A DNA stretch of 47,793 nt from a virus (Duplodnaviria; Caudoviricetes): IMG/VR virus record IMGVR_UViG_3300044518_000068, positions 1 to 47,793 of that record. One strand, 5' to 3'. Below the pieces are notes generated by a model. It saw nothing but the letters and a program-made list of their open reading frames with translations, was not told the DNA's origin and ran no database searches. Position 1 is the first letter of the stretch. Each line of letters opens with the position of its first letter. The position numbers and the translations under genes were made by a program. Below are positions 9,242 through 46,776 of the stretch, piece by piece.

Positions 9242-10126
9242 GTGACCCTGGACGCCATGCACTGGGTGTGGAACCACTCCCAGTCGCGCGGGAACTCGCG
9301 GATCGTGCTGCTCGCGGTCGCGGACCAGGTTCGCACGCCCGAGTGTGAAGTCCGGCTCAGCTGGGCCGACTTGAAGCAAGCGCTCAACGTCACATCGAAG
9401 AGCGTCGTCAGCGCGGCCGTGAAGTCTGCAGTCGCGCTGGGGGAGTTGGAGATCGTCCAGCCCGGCGTGGGTACTCGGGCAACCCTCTATCGACTCACCA
9501 GGGCGGTCGGGTACGTCCGCAGCAATGCGGCTAGTGGTTCGGAATTCGCACCTCTGAGAGGTCCGGAATCTGGACCCCTGGGGAAGGAGGGTGGTCCGGA
9601 ATCCGGACCACTAACCGAAGTTAGAGGTACGGAATCCGGACCTCTGGGATCCGACCAAGATCACGCTAGTGGTCCGGAATCCGTACCAGAGTGGTCCGGA
9701 ATCCGTACCTCTAGTGGTCCGGAATCTGGACCACACTCTCCATCCCCAGTGCCCAAGCACGAGAGAGCGATCGACGCGCCCTCGGCGGACGCTGGCTTCC
9801 CCGCCTTCGCCCGGCCGCTCGCCGACCAACTCCAGCTCGCCGGCGTCAACGTCCGCTGGCCCTTCAACCAGACCGAGTGGTTCAAACTCGACGCCGCGAT
9901 CAAGAAGTCCGGCATCCCGGCCCTCGTCGAGTACGCCCGTCGCACCTGGGAGCGCCAGCACGGTGGCATCGACTCCGCCCGCTACTTCCTCCGCGGCTGG
10001 AGCGAACTCGCCCCGCTGCCCTCCCCGGACGCCGAACGCCCGCCCCTCCGAGCCGTCGGCACCACCGGCTGGCAGCCCTACACCAACCCCACCGATCACT
10101 CCGTGTACCAGAACGGATGGACCTGA
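9242..10126 (+). CDS. Replication initiator (lambda O-like, N-terminal wHTH)
   Basis: Contains iteron array and precedes DnaC-like ATPase; GGAAGGA RBS before GTG 9242 (ORF open from 9185). Confidence 0.8.
   Translation: MTLDAMHWVWNHSQSRGNSRIVLLAVADQVRTPECEVRLSWADLKQALNVTSKSVVSAAVKSAVALGELEIVQPGVGTRATLYRLTRAVGYVRSNAASGSEFAPLRGPESGPLGKEGGPESGPLTEVRGTESGPLGSDQDHASGPESVPEWSGIRTSSGPESGPHSPSPVPKHERAIDAPSADAGFPAFARPLADQLQLAGVNVRWPFNQTEWFKLDAAIKKSGIPALVEYARRTWERQHGGIDSARYFLRGWSELAPLPSPDAERPPLRAVGTTGWQPYTNPTDHSVYQNGWT
9536..9732. repeat. Seven 17-bp pseudo-palindromic iterons, probable phage replication origin
   Basis: Consensus GGTCCGGAATCCGGACC at 9536, 9560, 9593, 9626, 9671, 9693, 9716. Confidence 0.85.
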
Positions 10127-32145: not shown

Positions 32146-32843
32146 TGTCCTGGGGCACGCCGCAGCCGCCGGCCGCCGCCCGGCAGACGGTGAAGCGGCA
32201 CCTCAGCGCGGCGGCCCGGCAGCGGATCAGTGCCCGCATGAAGGGCAGGCCGCACCCACACCGCGGGCACCCGCTCAGCGCGGCCACCCGGGCGAAGATC
32301 TCGGCAGCGCTCCGCGGCCGCCACCATGCCGGGCACCGGATGAGCGCGGCGACCCGCGCCAAGATCTCTGCCGCGCTGAAGGGCCGGCACCACCCGGGTG
32401 CGAAGGGCAAGCACCACAAGGGCCACAAGCTCAGCGCCTCGACCCGCGCGAAGTTGAGCGCCAAGCTGAAGGGCCGCAAGCACAAGCCCTTGAGCGCTGC
32501 CGCGAAGGCGAAGCTGCGGGCCAAGCTCCGCGGCCGGAAGCACAAGCCCCTGTCCGCTGCGGCGAAGGCCAAGCTCAGGGCGAAGCTCAAGGGCCGCCAC
32601 CACAAGATGTCCGCGGCCGCCCGGGCCAAGCTGAGCGCCCGCATGAAGGGGCGTCACCACAAGCCCGGCCACCGCAAGCCGATGTCGGCCGCGGCCAGAG
32701 CGAAGCTCTCAGCCCGAATGAAGGGCCGCCACCACCGCGGTGGTCACCACAAGGGCCACAAGATGTCGGCCGCCGCGAGGGCGAAGGCGGCCGCGACCCG
32801 CCGCGCTCACCCCCGCAAGCAGCAGAGGAGGCGCCGCCGTTGA
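32145..32843 (+). CDS. Extremely basic tandem-repeat protein (NUMOD3-like repeats)
   Basis: 232 aa, no Asp/Glu; nine (L/M)SAAxRAK(I/L)SAxxKGR-type units; coupled to both neighbours. Confidence 0.8.
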   Translation: MSWGTPQPPAAARQTVKRHLSAAARQRISARMKGRPHPHRGHPLSAATRAKISAALRGRHHAGHRMSAATRAKISAALKGRHHPGAKGKHHKGHKLSASTRAKLSAKLKGRKHKPLSAAAKAKLRAKLRGRKHKPLSAAAKAKLRAKLKGRHHKMSAAARAKLSARMKGRHHKPGHRKPMSAAARAKLSARMKGRHHRGGHHKGHKMSAAARAKAAATRRAHPRKQQRRRRR

Positions 32844-45884: not shown

Positions 45885-46106
45885 CTAGCGCAGGTCGGTG
45901 CGGGCGCCCTGTCCCGGGCGGCCGACTTGGGCGGCGCGAACCTCGGCCGCACGGTAGCGAGCACGAGGCCGGCTGCTGGTGGGATGGGGCTGAAAGTCGT
46001 GGGCCTGAACCTTCCAGCGGGAGAGGGTGCGTCGCGCGGAGCCGGAGCTCGCGGCTCCCAGGTACTCGACCACCTGGTCGATGGTCCAGAGTTCGGGTTC
46101 GGCCAT
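45885..46106 (-). CDS. Small MerR/Xis-like HTH regulator (Aca-like position)
   Basis: LWTIDQVVEYLG...SARRTLSRW...RPGQGARTDL; TGATG-coupled to upstream gene. Confidence 0.78.
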   Translation of the reverse strand: MAEPELWTIDQVVEYLGAASSGSARRTLSRWKVQAHDFQPHPTSSRPRARYRAAEVRAAQVGRPGQGARTDLR

Positions 46107-46405
46107 CAGGTGGTCTCGTGGCTGGTGATGATGGCCTCGCGAATCTCGGCGGCGGTGTCGTCGCTGATGGTGATCCAGGAGTCGACGTCGCGGTCGTCCG
46201 GGTTGCTGCGGAGGAGCTTGGGGCGCACGGGCTGGGTGTTGAGGATGATGTCGTCGCCGTCGATGTCGACGAGCTGGGCCAGCGTGGCGTGGATGGCGGC
46301 GTGCGCGTCGGCGCGGGGGAGGCCAGTCAGCTCCTGGATGTTGTCGAGAAGGTCGTAGCCGCCGATGGTGCGGCCGGGGCGGAGGCTGTAGATCGTGGTG
46401 CTCAC
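46106..46405 (-). CDS. Small acidic hypothetical protein, anti-CRISPR candidate
   Basis: 99 aa, about 17 D/E versus 8 K/R; AGGAG RBS before GTG 46405; function inferred from context only. Confidence 0.65.
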   Translation of the reverse strand: MSTTIYSLRPGRTIGGYDLLDNIQELTGLPRADAHAAIHATLAQLVDIDGDDIILNTQPVRPKLLRSNPDDRDVDSWITISDDTAAEIREAIITSHETT

Positions 46406-46444
46406 GGAGGTCTCCTGTCGCTGCGATTGGTGGACTCGGACATA

Positions 46445-46468
46445 ACCTTGCCTCACGTGAGGCAAGGT
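46445..46468. promoter_or_regulatory. Perfect 24-bp palindromic operator
   Basis: ACCTTGCCTCAC|GTGAGGCAAGGT between the HTH operon and the mini-array. Confidence 0.8.
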
Positions 46469-46557
46469 CTCAAGGGTGCCAGCAGTATGACTATTTGGAG
46501 CTCCTGGCGTCGGCCGGATTCGTATGACAGAGTGTCAGTTGTCCGCGTGAGCGGGCA

Positions 46558-46743
46558 CCGTTCCCCGCACCGGCGGGGTTGCCCTGCGATCTGCTGAACG
46601 CTGATGTGACAGCAGGGGTTGGCCCCGCGTTCGCGGGGATGGCCCATGGCCCTGTTTCGCATGATCGTTGGTCCCGCGCTCGCGGGCCTGGCCCACGGCC
46701 CTGTTTCACATACTCGTTGGGCCCGCGCTCGCGGGTGGCAGAC
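46558..46743 (+). CRISPR. Cas-less mini-array of four degenerate type I-E-like repeats
   Basis: Repeats at 46558 CCGTTCCCCGCACCGGCGGGGTTGCCCT, 46618 GTTGGCCCCGCGTTCGCGGGGATGGCCC, 46667 GTTGGTCCCGCGCTCGCGGGCCTGGCCC, 46716 GTTGGGCCCGCGCTCGCGGGTGGCAGAC; periods 60, 49, 49. Confidence 0.8.
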
Positions 46744-46776
46744 CGCCCCGCTCGGCTTCGGCCGGGCGGGGCGGTC
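46741..46776. terminator. Terminator hairpin closing the mini-array
   Basis: GACCGCCCCGCTCGGC-TTCG-GCCGGGCGGGGCGGTC. Confidence 0.8.

Follow-up and report, generated by a model that had tools for sequence, protein, structure and literature searches.

Spacer S2 of a four-repeat prophage array lacking cas genes is predicted with good confidence to load the Cascade complex of the host and to block the transcription of the Cascade genes without cutting by Cas3. The array lies in the IMG/VR record IMGVR_UViG_3300044518_000068, which was analysed over its whole length of 47,793 nt and is referred to as the window. Judged by its sequence, the array is likely to be a Cracr array (phage Cas-repressing RNA) and would represent an additional case of a class that is already described, including a type I-F complex shorter by two subunits, in the preprint by Liu et al. 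(bioRxiv 10.1101/2024.10.29.618823). A preliminary description of the window had proposed a phage-directed CRISPRi of the host cas operon, and this proposal is supported by an AAC-flanked putative target of S2 upstream of cas8e and by the seed that S2 has in common with the host CreR. The idea is less new than assumed there, since it matches the described Cracr arrays.

Organisation of the array

The array region (window 46,525-46,776; Table 1) comprises four type I-E-like repeats with periods of 60, 49 and 49 nt. The double period of 49 nt noted in the preliminary description was confirmed by the sequence, in which repeats start at 46618 and 46667 and an incomplete one follows at 46716, and by TRF (period 49, 2.4 copies, score 173), as were the two spacers of about 20 nt, which are identical at 16 of 20 positions; the two 49-nt units are identical at 41 of 49. 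Its outline of the array was correct for these two units and missed a fourth repeat, R1, together with the 31-nt spacer S1. A hairpin motif of the I-E type occurs four times in the window (46564, 46624, 46673 and 46722), all copies being located within 46564-46735, while shuffled sequences contained 0.83 ± 0.92 copies and in none of 100 shuffles at least four. Furthermore, the predicted fold of the 246-nt array region was better than that of all 200 shuffled sequences (z -4.57). A scan for the sigma-70 consensus revealed no promoter for the array, and Rfam gave no matches across the window.

Table 1. Predicted features of the array region in the window.
Feature	Position	Strand	Basis or remark
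Possible extended -10 box of the array	46525..46533	+	Inferred; sole TGn-YAnnnT match on the + strand within 46401-46620
Small hairpin directly next to R1; may be a degenerate repeat or a stem of the 5' leader	46540..46556	+	Minimum-energy and centroid folds
R1, type I-E-like repeat	46558..46586	+	Hairpin motif
S1, self-folding 31-nt spacer	46587..46617	+	Fold
R2, repeat, 6-bp stem intact	46618..46646	+	23/29 to canonical repeat of the target clade
S2, 20-nt guide; its AAC-flanked match precedes cas8e in one Kitasatospora I-E clade	46647..46666	+	
R3, degenerate repeat (stem base and handle start altered)	46667..46695	+	25/29 to R2, 22/29 to host repeat
S3, 20-nt diverged copy of S2	46696..46715	+	
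R4, terminal repeat, hairpin retained	46716..46744	+	18 of first 21 bases as in host repeat
Long GC stem-loop without U-run, likely transcription terminator	46741..46776	+	Fold; not flagged by T-run scan

The repeats differ in their affinities. R2 scored highest in the comparison with three repeat types, two of them from the clade targeted by S2 (23-25/28), and its last 8 nt, the predicted 5' handle, deviate by one base from the commonest handle of the host CreR. The resemblance of the repeat-like units to the host repeat and to the CreR handle that is expected of a Cracr array was thus found in R2. R1 resembles another I-E repeat type (21-22/28 to the repeats at L376, L377, L389 and L491) more than that of the target clade (15/29). 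The 3' end of R4 merges into the terminator-like stem.

Prophage context and likely host

The window is a provirus record with genes predicted to encode an integrase, a terminase, a capsid protein, a tape measure protein and an endolysin. The array is located about 1.1 kb after the endolysin gene, behind the lysis genes, in a gap between small leftward genes. No Cse1 match was detected in the record, which is estimated to be 54% complete, and the array is encoded on the virus, outside any CRISPR-cas locus. Since the top three full-length endolysin matches among 55 genomic loci belong to Kitasatospora (64-73%), this genus was taken as the likely host. The host search was based on 167 genomes of the genus to which G001 (the genome of L034) belongs, with one genome per species; cas8e was present in 87 of them. 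A comparison of 767 extracted host spacers with the provirus gave no convincing match.

Several further elements of the provirus were observed. A perfect 22-bp palindrome (46446-46467) precedes an orphan gene for an acidic protein of 99 amino acids (46106-46405, - strand), which is followed by a small gene putatively encoding a DNA-binding protein (45885-46106, - strand); the pair is divergent from the array and its layout recalls an acr-aca pair. For the 99-aa protein one homologue besides itself was detected, and there was no match in Pfam, PHROG or the Atlas. A 22-bp repeat present in three tandem copies in the early region (9666-9733) possibly represents origin iterons, and tandem coding repeats of 60 and 66 bp, rich in Lys, Ala and Arg, are found in the head-tail region (32264-32606).

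Predicted target of S2 upstream of cas8e

S2 was initially compared with 30 cas8e loci in a scan that left every sixth position out of account and used no PAM filter. Its two best matches corresponded to a site flanked by AAC, positions 6 and 12 being mismatched. The site is located on the template strand after a predicted -10 box and directly upstream of the ribosome-binding site of cas8e. In each of the six genomes compared, 13 nt separate the end of the PAM from the start codon. A predicted extended -10 box is located 7 nt before the 20-nt site in five of them, so that the site would span about +1 to +20.

A whole-genome search with the PAM and a 14-nt seed, a pattern chosen after the matches of the first scan had been seen, yielded seven exact matches in 7 of the 167 genomes. 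Six of these were at the cas8e site and the seventh had no cas3 or cas8e match nearby; the reversed-pattern control gave three matches. A search of 160 cas loci with no PAM filter gave 23 rows that contain an 11-nt run. All of them corresponded either to the cas8e site (8 rows, 7 genomes) or to the spacer of the host CreR (15 rows, 14 genomes), and registers shifted by one base gave 1 and 3 rows, none of them at either place. When an AAN PAM was required together with a minimum of 9 matching seed bases out of 10, 18 rows resulted, all of which were the cas8e site.

A run of 14 was reached by shuffled S2 in 19 of 20000 trials (130 loci) and by 589 of 95546 arbitrary 20-mers of the window somewhere in the cas loci. 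Because arbitrary 20-mers also attain such runs, it is the position of the match and not its length alone that carries the argument. The best match of S2 comprises 15 of 17 scored positions; position 15 matches none of the 22 alleles and position 20 only two. A perfect 10/10 seed was present in only 8 of the 22 alleles (seven among the rows selected by AAN PAM and at least 9 seed bases). The PAM is AAC in all 22 sites. AAG has been reported as the PAM of S. avermitilis (PMC4762764), and host spacer matches gave no confirmation of the PAM of the clade. S2 thus has the PAM-flanked target at a cas promoter by which Cracr guides are recognised.

In the preliminary description the spacers were regarded as 12 nt short, which agrees with the period of 61 nt in the immune array of the target clade. 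They were also interpreted as alleles of a -10 promoter element. The -10-like hexamers are indeed present at spacer position 14, but constitute weak evidence by themselves, since 8-11% of shuffled sequences (1587 of 20000 for S2 and 2241 for S3) also hold such a hexamer. Moreover, the guide has the sequence of the template strand in the interval from the predicted -10 box to the ribosome-binding site. The hexamer is read on this strand and includes positions 15 and 18, neither of which agrees with any of the 22 targets. The interpretation of the spacers as -10 promoter alleles is therefore not supported, and the feature matched is not the hexamer.

Other searches gave candidates that were not accepted. 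The full-length pattern of S2/S3 matched 18 times in 17 of the 167 genomes (control: 10), none of the matches being an AAN-flanked cas site. One family of coding genes, present in several genomes (L099, L101, L104, L106, L108, L114 and L115), matches S2 at 16-18 of 20 positions but shows no conservation of the PAM and was treated as a chance match. A metagenome scan gave 79 matches, none with a tblastn match to cas8e. In the family sample 18 matches were obtained in 401 genomes, of which the 10 at cas8e all fell within the 167-genome set. A close Cas8e was encoded in 35 of the 401 genomes of the Streptomyces sample, and none of the 30 Streptomyces loci inspected contained the seed of S2 or S3 near the start.

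The host CreR and the promoter alleles

The gap between a cas3-like gene (read in L395) and cas8e holds a mini-array on the reverse strand which consists of a degenerate repeat, a 32-nt spacer and a repeat. Conserved mini-arrays of this kind were observed in the Kitasatospora I-E clade (L261-L286, L316-L318), and several related Streptomyces loci carry CreR-like units with other seeds. These Kitasatospora loci share the layout of the type I-E CreR described by Liu et al. (bioRxiv 10.1101/2023.03.10.532045) and of the crRNA-like mini-arrays of Shmakov et al. (PMC10120712), namely a degenerate mini-array whose RNA would guide Cascade to a PAM-flanked site by cas8e.

From 29 loci 22 target sites could be parsed (seven were not parsed), 19 of them with a CreR unit; the remaining three retain the target site without CreR. 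Pairing between the CreR and its own target extends over positions 1-11, position 6 being the exception, and CreR and target covary at positions 4 (2 cases), 5 (5 cases) and 10 (3 cases). CreR and S2 aim at one site with a common 11-nt seed. In 14 genomes the CreR spacer has the same bases as S2 at positions 1-5 and 7-11, and the selection of Cracr arrays was reportedly based on at least 9 PAM-proximal bases in common with a CreR (bioRxiv 10.1101/2024.10.29.618823).

Past this seed S2 pairs further than CreR and follows the promoter: its positions 13, 14, 17 and 19 match 17, 17, 20 and 16 of the 22 targets, while CreR matches its own target there in 3, 4, 1 and 1 of 19 cases. Random distal bases did as well in 1817 of 100000 trials; as the targets are related and the counts not independent, this evidence is suggestive only. 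It bears on a decoy function similar to that of Racr, according to which the array RNAs would soak up Cas6 and Cas7 and the match of S2 would be a leftover of the capture of a CreR. Such a function would be in line with the CreR seed and handle of S2, with S1 and S3 having no target found, and with the report that the tested Salmonella Cracr array brought casA mRNA down by about 30% only, with a fall in crRNA levels as well (bioRxiv 10.1101/2024.10.29.618823). However, the four distal positions follow the promoter and equal CreR in 4, 4, 0 and 1 of 19 units, and the guide of a related prophage in genome G068 carries at position 2 an A which is found in 8 of the 22 promoters and in none of the 19 CreRs. 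A function as decoy only is therefore considered improbable.

Spacers S3 and S1

S3 deviates from S2 at positions 1, 13, 17 and 18, and the first three of these differences remove matches to the target (0/22, 3/22 and 1/22 alleles, respectively). Nine of the 10 seed bases of S3 match, whereas position 1 fails in all 22 alleles, which were sampled from one genome per species. In the cas loci searched, no PAM-flanked site starting with C, as needed for S3, was found. The assumption that the two guides cover two alleles of one promoter is thus not shown by the sampled alleles, and of the PAM-flanked target upstream of a cas gene suggested for both spacers only that of S2 was recovered, at the AAC site upstream of cas8e. 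Searches with S3 gave a single match in the 167 genomes, which was not at a cas gene, and, in a set of 23 genomes from the G005 genus, 10 matches (control: 11), which include sites in housekeeping promoters and were rejected as chance. S3 is likely a tandem duplicate which is either decaying or aimed at an unsampled allele, the latter being conceivable because the sample comprises one genome per species.

The state of S3 raises the question whether the whole array is a non-functional relic, i.e. one captured CreR unit that was truncated, tandemly duplicated and is now decaying. The identity of 41/49 between the units, the loss of target matches by three of the four differences in S3 and the degenerate R3 would fit this explanation, which probably describes S3. 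For the array as a whole it seems very unlikely, since all four hairpins are intact and a 20- or 21-nt spacer of the S2 seed family recurs in the G068 prophage, in the viral contig L125 and in contigs of the runs X1 and X2.

Neither the cas loci nor the phage itself nor one IMG/VR scan yielded an accepted target for S1. The PAM with 13 nt of S1 gave 29 matches in the 167 genomes (control: 0), which were not accepted as the matches end at 13-15 nt; many of them are located in a near-palindromic intergenic motif, and the sole match in a cas locus is an overlap with a repeat. The first 20 positions of S1 had 38 viral matches, none of which extends to a full match.

These searches also concern a role of the guides against other viruses or in self-regulation, whereby the host Cascade would be aimed at competing phages or at promoters of the phage itself. 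Besides the truncated viral matches of S1, the 10 matches of the full-length S2/S3 pattern in IMG/VR were rejected, all of them being located in contigs of 46-54% GC without repeat or AAN PAM, and no self-target exceeded a run of 8. An anti-phage viral mini-array would be expected to have full-length spacers with a PAM-flanked viral match; S2 and S3 comprise 20 nt, and S1 had no such match in one IMG/VR scan. It therefore appears highly improbable that the array acts on viral targets.

Related arrays in other phages

In G068, one of the 167 genomes, the same handle occurs in two places, succeeded by a homologous 20-nt spacer and a repeat. The prophage concerned encodes an endolysin with 70% identity to that of the window, and its array is situated behind the lysis genes. 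The guide of this array matches AAC-flanked alleles of the cas8e site at 9 of 10 seed bases in three loci. Likewise, the 20-nt spacer of viral contig L125 has 9/10 seed matches to the cas8e site family. Another contig of run X1, which is possibly the sample of origin of the window, carries a repeat, the first 12 nt of S2, seven other bases and a repeat at a period of 49, and a further contig of the same run an S3-like unit with terminator. Run X2, from a second study, provided a 217-nt contig identical to 46545-46761 (depth 2.6) plus a further 20-nt unit; the contigs of both runs are of low depth and were compared over part of their sequence.

Searching IMG/VR for pairs of hairpins that recur at a short period gave 120 loci, many with 49-50 nt and including unsorted REP-like false matches. 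Many viral contigs (L117-L236) show I-E-like repeats at a period of 48-50 nt, among them L134, L160, L168, L189 and L207 with two to four short spacers, which suggests that 20-nt guides are common in actinophages. Scans of IMG/VR with handle and seed gave one chance match and no matches, respectively, and a BLAST search of the array region against GenBank phages and plasmids only fragments of repeats or of the terminator.

Composite prophage arrays with spacers of about 32 nt and another repeat type were observed in the G068 prophage (L580/L581, its two places) and in L014 (8470-8680). The seeds of these longer spacers agree at 9 of 10 bases with sites that carry an AAG flank and lie upstream of cas8e in another I-E clade (L332, L336, L337), and in G068 the array is fused to the 20-nt module without a spacer. 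Furthermore, the Streptomyces phage Cumberbatch (L032, 1495-1800) contains an unannotated six-repeat I-E-like array with periods of 61, 60, 58, 49 and 51, and similar BLAST matches were obtained in several related phages. The short spacers of Cumberbatch had no cas target in 30 Streptomyces loci.

Comparison with described Cracr, CreR and Racr systems

The Cracr survey lists 219 candidates, among whose hosts are Actinomycetota, and 20 of the arrays are of type I-E; a Salmonella prophage array, CracrIE, was reported to reduce casA mRNA by about 30% and to restore phage growth, and Cracr complexes of type I-F were shown to lack two of the backbone subunits (bioRxiv 10.1101/2024.10.29.618823). 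Kitasatospora is not mentioned in the main text of this preprint, the supplements of which may list the array.

According to that account, the array of the window resembles CracrIE in being prophage-borne, without cas genes and composed of degenerate I-E repeats with spacers of about 20 nt, in its PAM-proximal CreR seed and target at the promoter of cas8e (casA), and in having several spacers, some without known target. It differs in its likely Kitasatospora host and AAC PAM. In contrast to the CracrIE system, the host CreR retains a 32-nt spacer and pairs up to position 11, whereas the phage guide has 20 nt and pairs further, and the two short guides are duplicates instead of guides for two distinct CreRs.

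A host CreR is located inside the cas locus which it regulates, while the array of the window lies in a prophage without Cse1 match and outside such a locus. Phage arrays of this kind had been predicted by Shmakov et al. (PMC10120712). As with Racr, repeat-like phage RNAs would compete for Cas proteins, and S1 and S3 may act in this way; Racr, however, is described as having no spacer match to CreR or promoter, and S2 matches both.

Proposed mechanism and implications

The array is presumably transcribed on the + strand and would be cut by the host Cas6e at the hairpins, so that a 49-nt RNA is released from R2-S2-R3. This RNA may form a Cascade with two fewer Cas7 subunits which would occupy roughly positions +1 to +20 of the cas8e transcript, and R-loop locking would be absent, hence no Cas3. 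It has been reported that one Cas7 is lost per 6 nt and that R-loop locking is absent in complexes shortened by 6, 12 and 18 nt (PMC6859484), that seed pairing suffices for binding with an affinity that peaks by 18 bp, and that interference requires at least 18-25 bp (bioRxiv 10.1101/169011). The complex shorter by two Cas7 subunits that was proposed in the preliminary description agrees with the first of these reports. Based on these reports on short guides, S2, a guide of 20 nt whose matches do not exceed 15 of the 17 positions scored, would bind where transcription starts and would not license Cas3. Its pairing, which is longer than that of CreR, would let S2 dominate the site, and competition for Cas proteins would be the least effect of S3 and S1.

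Taken jointly, the arrays might tentatively be read as modular Cracr arrays built by Kitasatospora prophages, with guides tuned to the cas8e promoter itself and not copied from CreR. These guides would cover +1 to +20 with 20 nt, outpair and outcompete CreR and track the promoter alleles from phage to phage, while longer guides in the same arrays would be aimed at other I-E clades. If this reading is true, it would present a legible arms race between guide and promoter.

The window provides an actinobacterial example in which guide, host CreR and target are all identified across many genomes and in which, to judge from these sequences, a silencing of cas is likely. The allele series of 22 promoter sites, 19 CreRs and three phage guides makes the competition between guide and CreR by longer pairing directly testable. 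The array could furthermore account for a weak activity of the native I-E systems in lysogenised antibiotic producers.
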